The notes beneath the pieces were generated by a model. The model worked only from the letters and a program-made list of their open reading frames with translations. It ran no database searches and had not been told where the DNA came from. A program made the translations under genes and the position numbers. 15,266 nucleotides of DNA from Bdellovibrionota bacterium FG-2. Lineage in GTDB: Bacteria; Bdellovibrionota; UBA1018. The DNA lies in NCBI GenBank assembly GCA_051382305.1, contig JBBCAV010000329.1, positions 1 through 15,266 on the forward strand, in the 5' to 3' direction. Shown one piece after another: positions 6,938 to 14,481 of this stretch (within the stretch, counting starts at the first letter, position 1; every line of letters starts with the position of its first letter).

Positions 6938-7879
6938 ATGACAAAAACGTTCTCAATACTGTTGTTTGTATTTTCCGTGTGCGCCCAAGCTTCGAATACT
7001 CCCCCTCGGGTATCCCCACCCTCTTCACCTCAACCCTCTGGATCAACACTCAAGCTAGATGCGGCCCTGGGTAGGGTCGTAAACCAGTGCAAATTCGTTT
7101 CCGGCAAACGTCACATTTGGCTATTCAAACAATGGCACCTCGCGCCAGCCGTAGATACCCATAATTTAGCCAAAGCTATTGAACTCCCGCAGCAAGAAAA
7201 TCAGCGCGCGATTTTTCGACAACTCGATCACTGGGTTAAAGACAAGCAAATGCCGATGATCATTGGCGAGGGGTGTTCAGGTGAAATCTTAGAATCGACG
7301 CCCATGGTCTTCAATGGCTGGGGCGCTCCCGAACTTCGAAAAAATGCGATGCTGCCGCAGTACGATGACATTACCACGCATATTCCGCTGAAGCTTGAGG
7401 TCAAGTATGGGAGTCGTGTGCTCACACTCTGCGGTGATGACGATGTATTGATAAAGGAAACGAGTTTGGCTTTTTCAGACGCGCGCGGTTCGGCTGGATT
7501 CTTGGGCCGACTCGTACAACACCGCATGGATCCTGTGAAATCTAAACTCTACCTCGACGGCGTAATGGAAGCGTTCAAACTCCCACCTGCGACCACGATC
7601 GAAGACGCAGTCGAATTTTTGAAAAGCGATCTGCGAAGAACTATTGAACGAATTAGAAAGTTATTGGACAAGCGAAATCGTAAGGTGATCGAGACATTGA
7701 AAAAAAAGGAAACGCCCGAGGCCGCAATCGTGTTCGGCGGCCTTCACGCTGGCGGAATCAAGACCTTGCTTGAAGAAACCGGGTTCAACTGTACGATGGT
7801 CGAACCCGCAGGTTACCCTGGGGGATCGGGTGGAGACGAAGAATCGCTGTTGACGAGGCTTGATCAGATTTTAAAGTAG
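6938..7879 (+). CDS. Secreted protein, probably TraB/GumN-TIKI/ChaN/EreA-like superfamily
   Basis: Signal peptide [18 protein letters not shown] and Pro/Ser linker. Motifs in superfamily order: [48 protein letters not shown] is secure; the family call is tentative. Confidence 0.7.
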
Positions 7880-7957
7880 AGTTTCGACCGTCAAACCATT
7901 GGCGTATATTCGGCATATTGTCCTAGATGCGGACTACATTTCAGGAATTTTTGAAAA

Positions 7958-8171
7958 CCAAATCAAGCAGCTCTCCTCGTGAGAGTCCTTGGTTAAAGCT
8001 GTACCGAGACACCCCTCGCAAAGACGATAAGTAGCCAGGTTTTTGCCTTAAGTTTTTCTAGTGCGATCCGATGAACAAAATAGTTGGTTGGACTATTATC
8101 TTTCATAGGCATCACCTCCTTTCCTAGTAAGAAGGGAGGTGGTTCCATCCACTCTGCTTGATTTGGCAGAG
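7958..8171. ncRNA. Structured RNA element closed by a perfect 13-bp inverted repeat (type I TA-like mRNA or sRNA)
   Basis: CCAAATCAAGCAG (7958-7970) is the exact reverse complement of CTGCTTGATTTGG (8154-8166). Internal hairpins include CTCTC/GAGAG (7971-7985), ATCACCTCCTTTC/GAAGGGAGGTGGT (8111-8143) and an alternative CTCTGC/GCAGAG (8152-8171). Confidence 0.5.
7993..8106 (-). CDS. 37-aa peptide with very long, hairpin-sequestered SD (candidate type I toxin-like peptide)
   Basis: GAAAGGAGGTGAT-GCCT-ATG, then MKDNSPTNYFVHRIALEKLKAKTWLLIVFARGVSVQL and TAA at 7993-7995. Confidence 0.5.
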   Translation of the reverse strand: MKDNSPTNYFVHRIALEKLKAKTWLLIVFARGVSVQL

Positions 8172-8174
8172 GAC

Positions 8175-8195
8175 CGCAAAGCAAGGGCCATGCCC
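8175..8195 (-). promoter_or_regulatory. sigma54 promoter (two overlapping GG-N10-GC matches) upstream of the structured element
   Basis: Minus strand GGGCAT-GGCCC-TTGCT (8180-8195) and TGGCCC-TTGCT-TTGCG (8175-8190). Predicted +1 falls at the start of the inverted-repeat arm. Confidence 0.55.
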
Positions 8196-8239: not shown

Positions 8240-9076
8240 CTACTGGCAGTCTTGAATAATCATATAATCATACATAACGGTCACGTCCCCAGACGCTAAA
8301 CCCATCATCGTGGCAGTCGCGTTAGTTCCGTTCGTATAAATGTGAGAATACGATGATCCTGTCGCTTGCGTAACTGTTGCAGTGATTTGAGTCGGAGTCA
8401 CATCAAGTCGTATCACGTCACCGGCAGTTGGAGTGACACCAGCGAACGTGCTTCTTCCATCTTCCATATGGAGCACTGAGGGCGCAGAGACATCGACCAA
8501 TTTATATCCGGTCGCCTGATCAGCAGTATTTCCCAGCTCAGGCATAGTCAATCCTTTGCCTGTGTCCGCAAAGAAAAATAGCTGGCTCTCCCAACTCACA
8601 GCACGAACAACAAACCCCGCAAGGGCAGTAGCCGCAGGCAACGAGGAAAGCTTCGATATTAGAGTACATGTCGTAAAGCCCGTATCAATGAAGAGCCCCC
8701 CAGAGATTCCCGGCACTGGCGCCATTACATGCGCTTGATTCGATGTAATCCCCCAGACGGAGGCCGAAGGGCTCATGACGTAAGGTTTCGCAATCCCCCC
8801 AAGCCCAAAATCTGTGAGGGCAGGCGATGGAAGTGTCGAAGGCGAAGCTCCAGGGTTCCTATCAAAAGTGTCTGAGGTAAAAATCACGGGAGTCGGTGAA
8901 ACCTCAGGGCTCGCCGCTACTTCAGGCGATACCGAAGGACTTGGTGAAGCGGCGACGTCGGCGGCAGGGTCAGCTTTCTTGCTGCAGCCGCCAATCACGC
9001 CTATTGCAATCGTATAAGCAACCATCACACTAACGGACACTACGCCCAACCGAATCAACCCTTTTTTATTCTTCAT
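8240..9076 (-). CDS. Lipoprotein with Pro/Ser-rich stalk and beta-rich C-terminal domain
   Basis: Basic N-terminus, hydrophobic stretch, lipobox-like IGG-C31; linker VAASPSPSVSP/EVAASPEVSPTP; Thr/Gly-rich beta-type domain with two Cys (TTCTL, QDCQ). Confidence 0.8.
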   Translation of the reverse strand: MKNKKGLIRLGVVSVSVMVAYTIAIGVIGGCSKKADPAADVAASPSPSVSPEVAASPEVSPTPVIFTSDTFDRNPGASPSTLPSPALTDFGLGGIAKPYVMSPSASVWGITSNQAHVMAPVPGISGGLFIDTGFTTCTLISKLSSLPAATALAGFVVRAVSWESQLFFFADTGKGLTMPELGNTADQATGYKLVDVSAPSVLHMEDGRSTFAGVTPTAGDVIRLDVTPTQITATVTQATGSSYSHIYTNGTNATATMMGLASGDVTVMYDYMIIQDCQ

Positions 9077-9283: not shown

Positions 9284-9547
9284 ATGAGAGTTCAAAGTCA
9301 GATCTTATCCGCACTCGTTTTGTTCACCGGGCTCTACGCCCTTGCAGGATATGTCGAAACGCAGGCAGACACCTCCACCCATCGCTCATTGGTAACCCGC
9401 GCCCAAAGAATTTTTGATTTCGACAATCTCAACCAAAACAAGCTTCCCCGCTCACACGTCATTGCACTTTCCATTGCACTGGAATTCAAAGACGACCGCG
9501 GCGCAGAACCCTTGCTTCGACAACTCGAACAGCGAATGGGAAACTAA
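9284..9547 (+). CDS. Small secreted or membrane-anchored hypothetical protein, 87 aa
   Basis: Strong SD AGAGGAGG; hydrophobic N-terminus ILSALVLFTGLYALAG; stop overlaps the dps stop (CTAA 9544-9547). Confidence 0.7.
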   Translation: MRVQSQILSALVLFTGLYALAGYVETQADTSTHRSLVTRAQRIFDFDNLNQNKLPRSHVIALSIALEFKDDRGAEPLLRQLEQRMGN

Positions 9548-10062
9548 CGTTTCACTTCACTCAAAACGTGTTTTCGCACAGGTTCCTTTATCGGCAAATT
9601 TGACTCCACTAACCAAAGATACTTATCCATCGATCGAGTAGCTGACACAATAATATCTTCTGTGACTCTGTCTTCATAATCTTCGCAAACCAGAATGCAC
9701 TCGCGACACGACTTTGCAAACGCGGCAATCGCACTGGAGAGCGCATTAAGATGATCCGCACACTCAACAATGTCCCTCGGATACTCTTCAATTTGTGACC
9801 GTTCCGAAACGATCCATGCCGTCCCTTCGGCATGTCCCCCGAGTTGCGCGATGCGCTCTGCAATCGTATCAACATGCTCAGAAATTCCTTTCGTGACTTC
9901 ATCAAATAGTTTGTGAAGCTGAAAAAATCCCCGGCCCCGTAAGTTCCAGTGCGCTTGTTTAGTCTGAAGCATCAACTCAATTCCGTCGGCAAGCCGATCG
10001 TTAAGCATCTGCACAGTTTTGGAACGGACGGATTCAGTAATATCAATTCGAGTCGCCAGCAT
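9544..10062 (-). CDS. dps: DNA starvation/stationary-phase protection protein Dps, 172 aa
   Basis: KQAHWNLRGRGFFQLHKLFDE and VDTIAERIAQLGG ferroxidase motifs, DKYLWLVES. Start reassigned to ATG 10062 (SD AGAAGGA). Confidence 0.93.
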   Translation of the reverse strand: MLATRIDITESVRSKTVQMLNDRLADGIELMLQTKQAHWNLRGRGFFQLHKLFDEVTKGISEHVDTIAERIAQLGGHAEGTAWIVSERSQIEEYPRDIVECADHLNALSSAIAAFAKSCRECILVCEDYEDRVTEDIIVSATRSMDKYLWLVESNLPIKEPVRKHVLSEVKR

Positions 10063-10094
10063 AAATGGGATCCTTCTTTCTGGCGTCTTGTGTG

Positions 10095-10110
10095 TGCAAG
10101 ATTTGTGGCA
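10095..10110 (-). promoter_or_regulatory. Degenerate sigma54 promoter upstream of dps
   Basis: TGCCAC-AAATC-TTGCA matches TGGCAC-N5-TTGCA except the invariant -24 GG reads GC; correctly placed ahead of the dps SD. Confidence 0.4.
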
Positions 10111-10127
10111 GGGACACCGCACCATCT

Positions 10128-11510
10128 TCAAACGAAATATTCTCGCTTTTGAATCTCGTGCTGCTGAATCTTTTTGTGCAGATAGGTCCTTTCGATCTGC
10201 AGCATTTCAGAGGCTTTTGAAATGTTTCCGTCAGTTATTTTCAGAACCGATACCAAATAGTCTCGCTCACTGCGATCCTTGAAGTCTTTGAGAGATAAAC
10301 CCGCGTAGTCATTTGCAGCGGGCACAGCGTTATCAAAAAGATAGGCCGGCAGATCTGCTTTCCCAATTTGATCTCCACTCATAATCACAATTCGCTCAAC
10401 GAGATTCTGAAGCTCGCGAACGTTTCCAGGCCATGAGTACTTGCGGAGTTCCGAAAGTACGTCTTCGCCAATAACTTTTTCTTTGAAACCATTCTGAGTG
10501 CATGCCCTTTGGGCAAACCAAACCACAAGCAGCGGAATATCCTCTGGCCGCTCACGAAGCGGGACCGAATGTAGGGGAACCACACTAATTCGATAATACA
10601 AATCCTCGCGAAACCGCCCGGCCTCTACCTCCGCCTTGAGATCTTTGTTCGTTGCAGCCACTATTCGTATGTTGACAGAAATCACGCGCTCCGAACCCAA
10701 CTTTTGGATCTCGGCACTTTGAATCGCCCTTAATACCTTGGCTTGAGCACCCAGCGACATGTCGCCAATCTCATCAAGAAATAAGGTCCCATGATTTGCC
10801 TGTTCAAAAAAACCACGTTTTGCAAAAGCCGCACCCGTAAAAGCCCCTTTTTCAAAACCAAAAAGCTCGCTCTCAATTAGGGTTTCGGGGATGGCCGAGC
10901 AATTCACCTTAATGAAAGGCTTATTTTTTCGCTCACTTTGTTCGTGAATTAGTTTGGCGAGCAGCTCTTTGCCCGTACCGCTCTCGCCCTCAAGGAGAAC
11001 CGTCGCATTTGATTTAGCGACTTTAGTGACTTCTTGCAAAAGTCTCTCTGTTGCTTTGGATTGACATACAAAATGTGTTCGGCCCGCGTTCGCGTCCTGC
11101 GCCTGAAGCACTTCAACCTTGCGTTTCAAATCTTGATGCTCCAGGCACCGCTGCACAGTGATGCAGAGTTTTTCACTGGTAAAGGGTTTTTCGAGAAAAT
11201 CAAAAGCTCGCAGCTTCACCGCTTGAATGGCTTCGGTGACAGAAGCGTTACCAGAGATAAAGATCACGGGTGTCGGTATCCCATTCTCCACCATCCTCTG
11301 AAAAAGCTCCAACCCAGCAACTCCATCCATTTTGATATCGAGAATGGCTAGGTCATAATCTTGCGTGGCAATCTGCTGATAGGCCGTAACCGGCGATTCG
11401 TAAGGATGAACACGGTAGCCGTCATTTTGTAAGGAGAGCTGCACCTCCCGGCGAATATTGGCTTCGTCATCTACAACAATGATTTTAATGGCGTCCTTAT
11501 TAATCTCCAT
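10128..11510 (-). CDS. sigma54-dependent response regulator (REC-AAA+-HTH; NtrX/NtrC family)
   Basis: IIVVDDE, ILDIKMDG, ISGNA, FDFLEKP; Walker A GESGTGKE; intact GAFTGA; LFLDEIGDM; FREDLYYR; WPGNVRELQN; Fis-type HTH GNISKASEMLQIERTYLHKKI. Confidence 0.96.
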   Translation of the reverse strand: MEINKDAIKIIVVDDEANIRREVQLSLQNDGYRVHPYESPVTAYQQIATQDYDLAILDIKMDGVAGLELFQRMVENGIPTPVIFISGNASVTEAIQAVKLRAFDFLEKPFTSEKLCITVQRCLEHQDLKRKVEVLQAQDANAGRTHFVCQSKATERLLQEVTKVAKSNATVLLEGESGTGKELLAKLIHEQSERKNKPFIKVNCSAIPETLIESELFGFEKGAFTGAAFAKRGFFEQANHGTLFLDEIGDMSLGAQAKVLRAIQSAEIQKLGSERVISVNIRIVAATNKDLKAEVEAGRFREDLYYRISVVPLHSVPLRERPEDIPLLVVWFAQRACTQNGFKEKVIGEDVLSELRKYSWPGNVRELQNLVERIVIMSGDQIGKADLPAYLFDNAVPAANDYAGLSLKDFKDRSERDYLVSVLKITDGNISKASEMLQIERTYLHKKIQQHEIQKREYFV

Positions 11511-11513
11511 AAA

Positions 11514-12650
11514 CTAGATGCCTCCCGCAGTTTGATCGACTCTCGGGAGTTCAATGACGAATCCTGCACCCTCTCCACGATCCCAGCACGCAATCCGCCC
11601 GCCATGATCCATAACAATCTTCTTCACCACCGACAGGCCCAAGCCCATATGGTCATGATCGGATTTAGTAGAAAAGTAGGGCTGAAAAATCTTCTCACGA
11701 AGCGCCACAGGAATCACGCGTCCGGAATTTGTAACTTCAATTTGAATCCCGCTTTGGGATTCAGCGAGCCTAAACCGGATTTCGATTGGAACTTCTGCAT
11801 TAGCCTCTGTTGCATTATTGATCAGGTTCATAAAGACTTGGCGAAAAAGCCCGCAATCAAGCGCGACTATTGCGGGCTCCAACAGTGATGATCCATCAAA
11901 AGTGATCGTGACATTGGGCCATGAAGATCCATAGGCATCGAGATATGATGTGATGAAAGGCTGAAGGGCAATATTCTCAAACTGCGGTGCGGGAAGCTTA
12001 GAGAAACTCGAAAAGTTATGAACCATTTTTCGGAGATGACTGATCTCCTCAGAAACAATTTTGTGGGTCTCTTTGAGTTGCTCACCGAAGGCGCCGGCCT
12101 CTTTCGTAGCGTGAGACTTTACAAGATCAGAAACCAAAATTTCAATCGGCGTCAAAGGCCCCTTGATCTCATGCGCAAGTTTTCGGGCTACCTGTTGCTA
12201 TTGCGAAATCTCCTCTAAGTATTTCACCCGGTCTTTTTGCTCGAACAATTGTTTAAGCGTAAGCGTAAAAGTTCGCGAGACACTCCGATTAAGGAAAAAT
12301 GCGCTAAGCACGGCCGCCAGAAAGACGAGCGAGATTCCGCCCGCAAAGTAGGTGAACAGCGTACTATTCAGTGCGGCTTTGACGGCCGAGTTATCTGAGT
12401 AAACCGCCTGTAGGCTTCTACTTTCCTCGAATTCCCGCCGATAGTCGTTTTGTCTTTCGGGCTTCAGAACCCTCAGTTCCTTGAGATGTTCTTGATGGCG
12501 ATCAAGAAACTGAGAGATACTCGGATTGAAACCAAGATTGAGGGACCGACCGACGACATCACGCACGAGGATGTAGGCGGTTGCCATCGGCAGAACCGCG
12601 AGGATCAAAATTCCAATATAAAGTTTAAATCTGACTTTATTCTTAATCAT
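11514..12650 (-). pseudogene. NtrY-like membrane sensor histidine kinase (378 codons) with in-frame TAG at 12198-12200
   Basis: Track ORFs 12198..12650 and 11514..12155 share a frame: LEEISQ*QQVARKLAHEIKGPLTPIE (H-box). Two TM segments upstream; N box NLINNA, F box IFQPYFSTK, G2 box GLGLSVVKKI. Confidence 0.9.
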
Positions 12651-13324
12651 GCAATGCTGTAATCCTAAACTCTTTAGAGCGAACCGTGGTCTTCCATTTT
12701 GTACTCGAAAGTCCCTCGCTAAGATACTCTGAAAAAAGAGCGCCCATAATCCGATTAGAACTCATGCTGCCTATTTGGCCTTGTCCCGGGTTGGGCGCCC
12801 CTGAGCCGTTCCCTTGGGCCGGACTAATTCCGGTGTTTACATTATTTTCTGAAACCCACTTTCGAATGACCTCTGCGCGGTCTTTTTGAATAGGATCCAA
12901 GAGGACCGTAACTTCAAGCGAGTAGGATGTCGCCGGATTAAGCACCGAGATTTTTTCAATCGGAAATAGCTTGATCGACTCCAGCCACGCAAGAACCTCA
13001 TCGGAAGATCTAAAGACGCGACTCTCTTTTCCCGAAGCGCCAGAAGAAAGCGAGGATAGAAATACCTCATCCCAGAGGTCATAGAAAACCCCAAAAATAT
13101 ATTCCTTTGAAAACGCCGCCTGCTTTCCATGGGTAAGTTTGAGCTGGAACACGACGGTTGTAGTAAAGCCGCTTTTTAAGCCCTTTTGAAGCTCGGCCTT
13201 TGGAATTTCAATTCTAGATAAAAGTACACCCAGAGAGTCGCCACCACGAAATGGAGTAAGAGTTCCAGCGGAGGCAAACCACGCTCGAATACAAAAAAAC
13301 AACCAGGACGATGAGCGGTCTCAT
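12643..13324 (-). pseudogene. DUF4390-like periplasmic protein, probably frameshifted in its signal peptide
   Basis: Body (LQKGLKSGFTTTVVF...FYDLWDEVF...YSLEVTVLLDP...IRKW) resembles DUF4390 proteins found before NtrY/NtrX-like pairs. ATG 13324 overlaps the upstream TGA (ATGA) and reads MRPLIVLVVFLYSSV but is one base out of frame with FASAGTL. T7 run at 13293-13299. Confidence 0.6.
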
Positions 13325-14438
13325 CGTTGCCCCTGCCAAGAAGCGATTTCGTGCGCATAAAGCAAAAACAATTTGACCGTTCCAATGACAGGAACATCAA
13401 GAGTGAGACCCGTCCTTGCTCCAGGCGCAATGACTGAATAAAAACCTTGAACGCTGCCATAACCCAGACCGAAAGCTTTAAATCCGAGATCAAAATTAAG
13501 TCTCGCATTTTGGGTCGCATCAGAATCATGATGCCGTTTTAGATCGTAACCATAACCCAGAGAAAATGGAAGTGTATCTATATTCGTATATCGAGCCAAT
13601 CTGAAGATCCCATCCCCAATCGGATTCCAGCTTCCGAGGTTTAGGTTTAGGGTCGAAGTTTCAGTCAGGGACCAATATTTGCGGTAACTTACATCAGAAG
13701 AAAAATAGTCCATATCGGGGAAATTGAAACCTACCCCGGCCTGGAAAGTCGAACCCTGAGTTGAAAAATTCGCATCATCAACCGAGTTCCATCCGTAGGT
13801 TAGTGAAACTCCGTTTTTCCCAAAAAAATCGTTAAGATCTCTTCCGTCAAAATCGATATATTTGGTATGCAGGAAGCGTTGATATCGCAGGGACAAGTAG
13901 GAAAAGCTCCCCACTCTGAAGCCAAGATCCCCAGAGGCGCCCAAAGACCGCCAAACGTACTATCGTTTCTTGCTGTCCAGGCACCCTGAAAGATTTTGCC
14001 ATTTCCGAAAAGGTTTCGATTGCCGATAGTTCCGCTAAAAACTTTAGCTGAACCGTAGGTATCATAGATAGCACCTGCAGTCAGTTCAGAATAATACGGT
14101 GCCCCCTCGACGACCCCAATATCGACAATCACTTGACCGCGCGTGCCGCCTTTTTTGAGCGTTATATTGATTTCTTTAAACAAACCCATCAGATTAAGAC
14201 GGATCCTGGCATTCTCGATTTCTTTTTCGTTGAGTTTTTCACCGGGTATCAAGCGGAGTTCCTTTTTTAGGAGTTCGCAATTCGTAGATTCATTGCCCGA
14301 GCAGGTGATTGCCTCGACCACGAGTTGATCCGGTGTCAGTACTTCCGGAGACGCCCATACTGCGCTGGCGATGGTCGAAAATACCATTAAAAATAAGCCA
14401 GCAAACAGCGCGATGGATCTCATACGGTTTTCTCTCAC
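13321..14438 (-). pseudogene. Short Omp85/BamA-TamA-family protein with one POTRA domain (~372 aa), split by a 1-nt frameshift near 13945-13958
   Basis: SD AGAGGAG plus GTG 14438 (or ATG 14423); signal peptide; POTRA (ITCSGNEST...LIPGEKL...LNLMGLFKEINI); barrel start GNRNLFGNGK. Second frame continues with YGWNSVDDANFSTQG (DTRD..PTxG-like). One added base (e.g. GGT[T]CT) joins them as STFGGSLGASGDLG. Confidence 0.75.
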
Positions 14439-14481
14439 AAAAACTCCTCTCATCAAATGTGTAATTTCTGAGAACCCTTAG

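Follow-up and report, generated by a model that had tools for sequence, protein, structure and literature searches.

An unannotated gene-plus-RNA-structure family in the order of Bacteriovorax, with a sigma-54-type promoter and a possible type I toxin-like role

What kind of genetic element occupies positions 8194-7954 on the minus strand of contig JBBCAV010000329.1 of Bdellovibrionota bacterium FG-2? This contig of 15,266 nucleotides (nt; assembly GCA_051382305.1) is referred to below as the window. The original prediction, made from the letters of the window, recognized a sigma-54 promoter, pairing between the two ends of the RNA, an anti-Shine-Dalgarno (anti-SD) segment facing the Shine-Dalgarno (SD) sequence and a small open reading frame (ORF), and took them for a new type I toxin-antitoxin or dual-function RNA. 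Each of these four parts is present on the minus strand, and the features of the window exceed chance. Our comparative analyses identified the element as one member of a real, conserved and unannotated family, uniting a gene with an RNA structure, which is restricted to one order and occurs in many copies. As to its working, analogy with known systems makes a sigma-54-gated, type I toxin-like module, with the antitoxin unproven, the best reading, and we hold it to be probable, if modestly so; the type I toxin-antitoxin label is used here as an analogy and not as a statement of membership.

Parts of the element were found on 16 other contigs of the same genome by DNA search (blastn, with full-length paralogs as added queries); several of these copies lie at contig ends, and contig C236 carries a tandem pair. 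Same-genome copies that retain the 5' part each have their own GG-N10-GC motif, and their upstream flanks are unrelated. Full-length members measure about 270 nt, those of contigs C40 and C236 being about 53 nt longer than the window copy. Among related genomes, DNA search detected the family in 11 of 41, the sister species G001 having up to 21 matches and G019 having 17, and the copies share 66-82% identity. When one genome per species of bacteria and archaea was scanned for exact patterns, 27 stretches came up, all of them in records titled Bdellovibrionia, Oligoflexia, Bacteriovoracaceae or Bacteriovorax. A profile of the encoded peptide matched 25 of the 127 genomes of the class (1-26 matches apiece) and 23 of 401 genomes in a phylum-wide sample; the 22 besides the window's own belong to f1, f2, f6, f9 and f10, five families of the window's own order, and the profile had no match among 309 genomes of other Bdellovibrionota families. 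The leader, searched with a 71-position covariance model instead of the full-length one (about 275 positions), was found in 25 of 127 genomes, nearly the same set, and its matches end where those of the peptide start.

Among 1.84 billion representative proteins, the profile matched 79 at E up to 1e-3, nearly all of 38-83 amino acids (aa), the exceptions being single proteins of 31 and 131. Cluster look-ups for ten of the 79 listed 14 members, of which 4 were named "hypothetical protein" and 10 were unnamed; a word-indexed protein search gave 5 proteins. The family has no entry in Rfam, Pfam or NCBIfam, and no description of it was found in the literature or in the databases searched. Rfam gave no match in the window at gathering scores, and none to the element in the full-length paralogs L005 and L003 at E up to 0.01. 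A divergent subfamily was seen in G019, at locus L038 (G019:C22:72178-73403), where three tandem copies with a 449-nt period keep the promoter, the leader, the closing helix and the 3' hairpins; the RNA chassis is the same and the peptide is a diverged one of 49 aa.

The conserved structure was defined on alignment A1, composed of 29 full copies from seven genomes (346 columns). Helices were found by RNAalifold, which recovered the closing helix, by a scan for stacked, mostly canonical column pairs, and by a formal count. Eight helices were distinguished (A1 columns):

4-17 : 329-342, RNA strand minus: closing end-to-end helix
21-24 : 31-34: small 5' hairpin
35-44 : 79-88: anti-SD/SD helix
106-112 : 134-140: ORF hairpin
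155-164 : 223-232: helix CUAGAAAAA/UUUUUCUAG
190-194 : 211-215: helix CCUGG/CCAGG
204-208 : 254-258: helix crossing the 155-164 helix
277-280 : 298-301: hairpin of the 3' untranslated region (UTR)

These helices comprise 58 pairs, and 91.7% of their cells pair. The original prediction had proposed a search for paralogs and covariation, and both were found: next to the copies on 16 other contigs, compensatory changes occur in 28 of the 58 pairs, compared with 15.8 ± 2.3 in shuffled alignments (none of 500 reaches the observed count) and 8-12 when the partners are slid by 1-3 columns. In the closing helix 98.5% of the cells are paired and 8 of 14 pairs compensate across the 29 copies, which bears out the predicted 5'-3' pairing, here of 14 base pairs (bp) followed by TTTT. 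Twenty distant copies from 14 further genomes keep the architecture and add new compensations in the closing helix (e.g., in G125, G057, G004 and G077); where the SD varies (G091, G057, G114 and G125), the anti-SD changes in step. A G-U pair stands at 8167/7957 in 27 of 29 copies, and such strand-specific G-U pairs identify the minus strand as the RNA strand.

The remaining helices show the same behavior at a smaller scale. In the small 5' hairpin, 7 of 29 copies have G-C in place of the middle A-U pair, with loop bases A23, G25, G26 and A27 invariant in A1, and 4 of 7 pairs compensate in the ORF hairpin, where AAU-to-AAC on one arm accompanies UAU-to-UGU (Tyr to Cys) on the other; coding and RNA structure thus constrain one and the same segment. 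Five of the 10 pairs of helix 155-164 : 223-232 compensate (its partner columns are absent from the window row), helix 190-194 : 211-215 shows a U-A/C-G switch (13 vs. 12 copies), and 2 of 4 pairs compensate in hairpin 277-280 : 298-301, whose ACAGC loop is almost invariant. Since helix 204-208 : 254-258 crosses helix 155-164 : 223-232 and both covary, the family has a pseudoknot or alternative folds, and the crossing suggests two RNA conformations. The A-N-GGA loop of the small 5' hairpin is near-universal in the copies, and a csrA gene is present in 4 of the 4 genomes checked; the binding motif of CsrA resembles this loop, and to call the loop a CsrA site is speculation.

In the window the element and its parts are arranged as follows:

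8181-8194, minus strand: sigma-54 promoter GGCAT-N5-TTGC (-24 GG at 8194-8193, -12 GC at 8182-8181), aligning with TGGCAY-N5-TTGCT of the paralogs
8176-8190, minus strand: second GG-N10-GC motif, overlapping the first and 5 nt downstream; in the sequence, not aligned with paralog promoters
8167-8171, minus strand: predicted transcription start, at about 8169, 2 nt ahead of the closing helix, placed by the spacing rule for the -12 element
8154-8167, minus strand: 5' arm of the closing helix, GCCAAATCAAGCAG, 14 pairs (A1 columns 4-17)
8139-8152, minus strand: small hairpin GUGG-AUGGAA-CCAC with conserved A-N-GGA loop (A1 columns 21-24 : 31-34)
8129-8141, minus strand: cis anti-SD CACCUCCCUUCUU (CACCTCCCTTCTT), pairing with 8125-8113 in a conserved helix
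8111-8125, minus strand: over-long SD (A)GGAAAGGAGGUGAU, complementary to the 16S 3' tail of two relatives
7993-8106, minus strand: ORF of 37 aa plus stop (ATG at 8106, TAA at 7995-7993), a truncated member of a 41-53-aa peptide family
8077-8099, minus strand: intra-ORF hairpin AUAAUAG/CUAUUUU (A1 columns 106-112 : 134-140)
8072-8099, plus strand: weak antisense sigma-70-like site TGAACA-16-TATTAT, 9 of 12, overlapping the Tyr-Tyr codons and the ORF hairpin
8052-8061, minus strand: CUAGAAAAAC, the 5' side of a 10-bp helix of the family, the other side being deleted here (A1 columns 155-164 : 223-232)
8042-8052, minus strand: counterpart of the group II intron homing site (in paralogs after CTTAAxC); the window copy has no intron
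8014-8039, minus strand: hairpin CCUGG...CGAGG in the ORF, 4 of 5 pairs forming in the window (A1 columns 190-194 : 211-215)
8010-8011, minus strand: deletion junction, with about 53 internal nt of the full-length paralogs missing (A1 columns 219-274)
7971-8007, minus strand: two 3'-UTR hairpins, GG(U)-ACAGCUUUA-ACC (from covariation) and CUCUC-ACGAG-GAGAG (from the minimum free energy fold)
7957-7970, minus strand: 3' arm of the closing helix, CTGCTTGATTTGGT, followed by TTTT (A1 columns 329-342)
7954-7957, minus strand: U tract past the closing helix, likely transcript end; a T-rich end occurs in 17 of 29 copies

Read from the aligned ATG, all 29 copies (29/29) have an open frame, which encodes 41-53 aa in 27; the short ORFs of the window (37 aa) and of G001_C150 (29 aa) both belong to internal-deletion derivatives. 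Indels inside the ORF are whole codons, the mean entropy of codon positions 1, 2 and 3 is 0.73, 0.63 and 0.96, with the second position almost fixed across the hydrophobic half, and a rough ratio of nonsynonymous to synonymous changes (pN/pS) is 0.54; by these sequence measures the ORF is under selection. The ORF of the original prediction is real, then, and its 37-aa form is a truncated version of the family peptide. The consensus, MKNNxxxYYxxRIxLEKLKQKTWxLxVLAKxLxFLVNLVxxYLRQx, joins a strongly cationic N-half (N-terminal net charge +4 to +9) to a hydrophobic C-half of membrane type. In a 17-residue Kyte-Doolittle window the family median is 2.12 (range 1.56-2.76) compared with 1.19 for the window copy, and the earlier caveat that the peptide lacks a full transmembrane helix is resolved by the full-length paralogs. 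AlphaFold2, run with the alignment, gives a single helix at residues 4-45 (mean predicted local distance difference test score 82).

The 16S rRNA is not assembled in the host genome or in G001, and its 3' tail was taken from two relatives, whose ends read GGATCACCTCCTTTCT... and GGATCACCTCCTTTCA...; the family SD complements 13-15 nt of this tail. The helix between anti-SD and 16S-complementary 13-nt SD, as proposed in the original prediction, covaries. The 13-mer SD GAAAGGAGGTGAT occurs 10 times in the host genome, each time (10/10) in a family copy. In partition-function folding of the full RNA, the median unpaired probability of the SD core is 0.003 (maximum about 0.2, at 0.21), with 0.003 in the window copy; the median is 0.002 when the 3' arm or the 3' UTR is left out, and 0.000 in nascent RNA ending 12 nt past the AUG. 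The SD lock is therefore predicted by these models to be local, forming ahead of the emergence of the start codon and independently of the end-to-end helix. The earlier idea that the 5'-3' helix controls the SD is not upheld by folding, in which the SD is paired with or without the 3' arm.

Promoter motifs were scored against GGCAC/TTGC with a threshold of at least 7 of 9, and 44 of 49 copies carry such a motif at the expected place; the five misses include one cut by the contig end and one with a single mismatch. The sigma-54-type promoter of the original prediction is thus present and family-wide, with a register that was off by 5 nt: alignment shows that the window motif homologous to those of the paralogs is 8194-8181 and not 8190-8176, which would put +1 within the 5' arm. 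At sigma-54 promoters, +1 lies 12 nt past the C of the -12 GC. By this rule the closing helix starts 1-3 nt downstream of +1 in all 26 of 26 copies with a promoter call. Because this spacing is fixed, promoter and RNA structure form one unit, and the transcript is predicted from the sequence to begin nearly flush with the closing helix. At the opposite end, at least 4 T lie within 5 nt from the last closing-helix pair in 17 of 29 copies, and a terminator scan found no canonical local terminator at the element end. Each family unit is a compact cassette that reaches from the promoter to the U tract. In the host genome one rpoN gene, about 20 activator genes and 27 matches to the sigma-54 activator domain were found. 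Among these matches is an NtrC-type response regulator, with a sigma-54 interaction domain, encoded about 2 kb upstream of the element (10128-11510, minus strand).

For the window RNA (8172-7950, minus strand), the minimum free energy (MFE) is -73.6 kcal/mol compared with -55.7 ± 4.7 in 200 shuffles (z -3.85; none as good), and the end-to-end helix is present in both the MFE and the centroid structure. The opposite strand folds comparably (z -4.58), because any helix set folds on either strand; folding on both strands had been part of the checks proposed originally, and was found for each. The metastable 5' hairpin at +1 did not hold up: CTCTGC/GCAGAG can be drawn at 8171-8166/8157-8152, but its first bases precede the +1 that the -12 element predicts, and its five pairs, 76.6% paired, are equaled by 184 of 500 shuffles.

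Still present in the window copy are promoter and closing helix, together with the 5' hairpin, the SD lock and the first 30 residues of the family peptide. With the deletion, two covarying helices lost their 3' strands and the peptide lost most of its hydrophobic helix; the family stop codon is gone too, and the ORF continues into the 3' UTR as far as a TAA. Since about 53 nt are lost, the 37-aa peptide is a truncated derivative; it matches the family hidden Markov model at positions 1-30 only (E 3e-12), and the window copy is probably inactive or weakened. A second in-frame ATG upstream, at 8112, falls within the SD. A search of sequencing runs listed a single public run containing the window stretch, and no RNA run with it; the unitigs of that single run were compared with the assembly. 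They end inside 8129-8167, a segment common to the paralogs, so that the link between promoter and body depends on the assembler; the copy-specific matched U-A pair 8161/7963 also supports this link. Unitig 7600-8158 crosses the deletion junction with zero differences.

Several copies are interrupted by insertions or rearranged. The family ORF is the homing site of a group II intron, which always sits at the same position, after CTTAAxC; its 5' junctions were seen on contigs C232, C244 and C317 and its 3' junctions on C125, C414 and C317. At L068:395-2292 (minus strand) the intron matches Rfam RF02005 and RF00029, and its 455-aa protein carries RVT_1 and GIIM domains but lacks an endonuclease domain. 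Each of the 3 assembled 5' ends of the intron sits in a family copy, and the junctions, read by eye, show that the family frame would be regained with two of the three 3' exons. In the C317 copy TGG has become TGA, and the hairpin partner has changed to compensate. One C leaves the intron/exon boundary ambiguous, and the intron's first 450 nt hold no exact complements of its exon-binding sites. The intron-like 3' end on C119 is a different one, at about the same site. Family sequence on C342, C270 and C293 is joined, at three different positions, to an element whose terminal sequence is shared (GTAAGCATTCAGTAAACCC on one strand). Another group II intron (L003:362-590, plus strand, contig C40; RF02005, 89.5 bits) lies about 800 nt from an intact family copy. 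Further rearranged copies include a promoter joined to the 3' half of the family unit (C337), a copy truncated at its 5' side (C292) and two with divergent 3' parts (C76 and C370).

The genomic setting of the copies is variable. Loci across the family have no recurring neighbor genes; a cluster of neighbors at 9 loci was rejected, as it consisted of the antisense frame of the element and a MazG gene in one lineage. At the window locus, synteny with the sister species G001 extends to a 316-aa gene and not to the element or the lipoprotein-like gene beside it. Because G001 shares only the adjacent 316-aa gene, no empty site can be defined. Target-site duplications are absent: the longest word shared by the flanks averages 4.75 compared with 4.39 ± 0.95 in controls, and reaches at least 7 in 3 of 28 copies. 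The full-length copy of the tandem pair (C236:105-480, L005) has an 11-nt flanking direct repeat, the sole one of such length among the 28, which is probably a duplication scar and not a target-site duplication.

We infer transcription from the sigma-54 site, operation of the lock in vivo, an activating step and toxicity of the peptide, which together would give the following scheme. The gene would be silent until an enhancer-binding protein fires the sigma-54 promoter. The RNA would then be translationally inert, both nascent and at full length and without co-transcriptional translation, because the SD hairpin is predicted to form ahead of the start codon, and its closed ends would keep it stable because both are paired. 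Translation would await a further event, most likely a cleavage or a factor that removes or displaces the anti-SD; we favor a cut between anti-SD and SD, within the small A/U-rich loop, of the kind known for the 5'-processed toxin mRNAs of Escherichia coli. The product would be a small membrane-active, growth-inhibiting peptide, which may insert in the inner membrane, the N-terminus facing inward. For such toxins a general two-step scheme is given in PMC11228461, with an inactive primary transcript that is then processed. Toxin-like traits are also seen in the population of copies, with tandem arrays, patchy distribution, many broken copies, and neither conserved neighbors nor synteny.

Several observations weigh against a type I toxin-like module. 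The peptide has no toxin-family match: Pfam (E up to 1), NCBIfam, PADLOC and PDB gave 0 matches, PHROGs gave only two unnamed families (E 0.058 and 0.12), and the best ESM Atlas hit is at 0.85, in unnamed clusters, the nearest named cluster being TisB at 0.76, a level rated "often chance". Most type I toxins have an N-terminal hydrophobic helix, and that of the family is C-terminal. Removal of the 3' arm leaves the SD paired in silico, and a switch of the hok/aapA type is therefore not applicable as such. Upstream of the promoter, no k-mer or spaced palindrome exceeded shuffles in 41 non-redundant segments of up to 190 nt: the top 8-mer occurs in 5 of 41 (shuffle maximum 5) and the top 6-mer in 15 (shuffle maximum 13), which would also fit an activator without DNA binding or an enhancer site elsewhere.

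The antitoxin is the other weak side. The antisense -35/-10 site scores 8 of 12 in 19 of 29 copies and 9 of 12 in the window, a score that no site reaches in the full-length paralog L005; since it overlies both the Tyr-Tyr codons and the ORF hairpin, the site does not count as independent evidence. Scans of the window and L005 found no antisense terminator, no conserved flanking RNA lies beside the copies, and sequence scans at or near the locus revealed no convincing antisense RNA antitoxin. Of the new type I toxin-antitoxin proposed originally, the uncharacterized type I-like architecture stands and the antitoxin RNA was not found. A variant of the reading supposes an antitoxin-free family of type I-like toxins, in which three cis locks would replace the antisense RNA: a sigma-54 promoter that stays silent unless activated, zipped transcript ends, and a full-length 16S-complementary SD held by a decoy anti-SD. 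Homing of a dedicated group II intron into the ORF would add a fourth, splicing-dependent lock, and the peptides would serve programmed growth arrest or membrane permeabilization in a Bacteriovorax-type predator life cycle. This variant seems to us unlikely.

The main rival to a toxin is a benign family of small membrane proteins, for example a sigma-54-controlled envelope or stress modulator made from a stable, throttled mRNA, without toxin or antitoxin. The coding, hydropathy and structure evidence fits such a protein equally, as do the lack of an antitoxin and of a toxin-family match, and sigma-54 regulons often govern cell-envelope functions. We nevertheless judge it rather unlikely: small proteins of the housekeeping type are usually single-copy and syntenic, whereas this family has 1-26 matches per genome, a patchy presence (25/127) and tandem, non-syntenic, often broken copies invaded by mobile elements, and the double lock of closed ends and sequestered over-long SD exceeds what throttling needs. 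Primacy of the RNA is harder still to uphold. A regulatory RNA, perhaps of dual function, made abundantly upon sigma-54 induction and acting through its GGA loop, anti-SD or long SD (by CsrA titration or 30S competition) with the peptide secondary, would account for the conserved A-N-GGA and ACAGC loops, which neither coding nor pairing explains, for the presence of csrA in every genome checked, for the Tyr-to-Cys positions where nucleotide constraint overrides amino acids, and for an SD that complements up to 15 nt of the 16S tail. An ORF open in all 29 copies, with whole-codon indels, a most variable third position and a conserved second position in the hydrophobic half, is not what such an RNA would leave, however; leader and peptide always co-occur, and SD and anti-SD are paired to each other rather than exposed. 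We regard this explanation as highly unlikely.

A selfish repeat was one of the refuting cases named in the original prediction: a miniature inverted-repeat transposable element (MITE) or similar repeat, whose inverted repeats would mimic the 5'-3' helix and whose ORF and promoter would be accidental. Many copies per genome, often at contig ends, inverted repeats near both ends and good folding of both strands are indeed found. The copies, however, have no target-site duplications and are just 66-82% identical, the arms covary copy by copy, unlike a transposase-binding site, and homology begins with the promoter, about 27 nt ahead of the 5' arm, and not with the repeat; strand-specific G-U pairs and selection on the ORF point the same way. 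The element is a gene family and not a MITE, an explanation that we consider extremely unlikely.

How does a sigma-54-gated, type I toxin-like module compare with known systems? Type I toxin-like modules have been described chiefly in enterobacteria, Firmicutes and Helicobacter/Campylobacter, and antisense RNA control belongs to their definition. The hok/sok system of plasmid R1 and enterobacterial chromosomes combines a 5'-3' fold-back with an inert, stable message for a peptide of about 50 aa; the new family resembles it in fold-back closure, in conserved alternative pairings within the mRNA, and in being multi-copy and often decayed on chromosomes. Hok also has an overlapping leader ORF (mok), 3' exonucleolytic activation, the Sok antisense RNA and an N-terminal hydrophobic helix; a mok-like ORF, 3' activation and a Sok-like RNA were not seen in the new family, and the Hok model of Pfam had 0 matches. 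In tisB/istR-1, zorO/orzO, dinQ/agrB and shoB/ohsC of E. coli, a 5'-UTR structure blocks the 30S subunit and cleavage in the 5' UTR activates the message; their transcription is gated by stress (through LexA for tisB and dinQ), and these single-copy toxins use a standby site and a trans-encoded or divergent small RNA. The likeness lies in an anti-SD placed 5' of the SD across an A/U-rich loop, with 5' cleavage deemed the likeliest activation; the gate of the new family differs, being sigma-54 plus activator, and the match to the ESM Atlas TisB cluster is just 0.76. Qrr1-4 of Vibrio and Pxr of Myxococcus are short, multi-copy or tandem sigma-54-driven units that end at a terminator and are non-coding, whereas the new family encodes a conserved peptide and hides its own SD. 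The AapA peptide has a charged N-part and a hydrophobic C-part, as in the new family.

T1TAdb describes toxin mRNAs by their SD and anti-SD sequences, by stem-loops at the 5' and 3' sides and by long-distance 5'-3' interactions (PMC8594479), all of which the family possesses. In three sources, SD/anti-SD pairing, 5'-3' interaction and an inactive primary transcript that is then processed appear as hallmarks of type I toxin mRNAs (PMC8594479, PMC5416894, PMC11228461). Of the hallmarks named in the original prediction, SD/anti-SD and 5'-3' interaction are borne out; these and 3' stem-loops are listed as key determinants (PMC8594479). The aapA1/IsoA1 system of Helicobacter pylori is alike in its sequestered SD, its several chromosomal copies and its discovery as a family through conserved mRNA structure, and differs in having a proven antisense antitoxin, IsoA1, and 3'-end processing that frees the SD (PMC5416894), neither of which was found or predicted in the new family. 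The latter also has a sigma-54-type promoter, belongs to another phylum and shares no sequence similarity with aapA1. In timP/timR of enterobacteria, the mRNA of a small inner-membrane toxin is controlled through mutually exclusive conformations, including a pseudoknot (PMC11228461); the crossing covarying helices of the new family (204-208:254-258 vs. 155-164:223-232) are comparable, but timP has a known antitoxin small RNA, no end-to-end helix and no homology to the family. In line with the original prediction, literature searches on type I toxins with sigma-54/RpoN turned up no sigma-54-controlled example. Literature searches on Bacteriovorax group II introns, on toxin-antitoxin systems or small RNAs of Bdellovibrio, and on Bacteriovorax transcriptomes with sigma-54 or small RNAs gave nothing relevant. 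New relative to the known systems are the sigma-54 promoter flush with the closing helix, the family-private SD of 13-15 nt, the phylum and the intron.

The neighborhood of the window copy contains an operon-like run upstream of the element (9544-12650, minus strand), with a Dps/ferritin-like gene (9544-10131), the NtrC-type regulator gene (10128-11510) and the ATPase part of a histidine kinase (11514-12155), preceded by a separate 150-aa membrane ORF (12198-12650); the histidine kinase at 11514-12650 may be split. Between this run and the element, positions 8240-9076 (minus strand) encode a 278-aa lipoprotein-like ORF with a signal peptide with Cys and a Pro/Ser-rich linker, which has no match in Pfam and no DNA match in the sister species G001. 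The synteny break relative to G001 starts right past the 316-aa gene at 7879. Two long ORFs (13321-13944 and 13800-14456, minus strand) overlap in different frames, and may represent one frameshifted gene of the outer-membrane type or an assembly error.

The family is unusual whatever its function, with overlapping constraints on coding and RNA that include a covarying pseudoknot or alternative helix, a private SD and an intron that homes into the ORF. It displays the same RNA logic as type I toxins in Bdellovibrionota, in the order of Bacteriovorax, with no evident antitoxin. If the peptide is toxic, transcriptional silence and cis RNA locks could replace an antitoxin, and up to about 20 inducible membrane peptides would become available for study in predatory bacteria.

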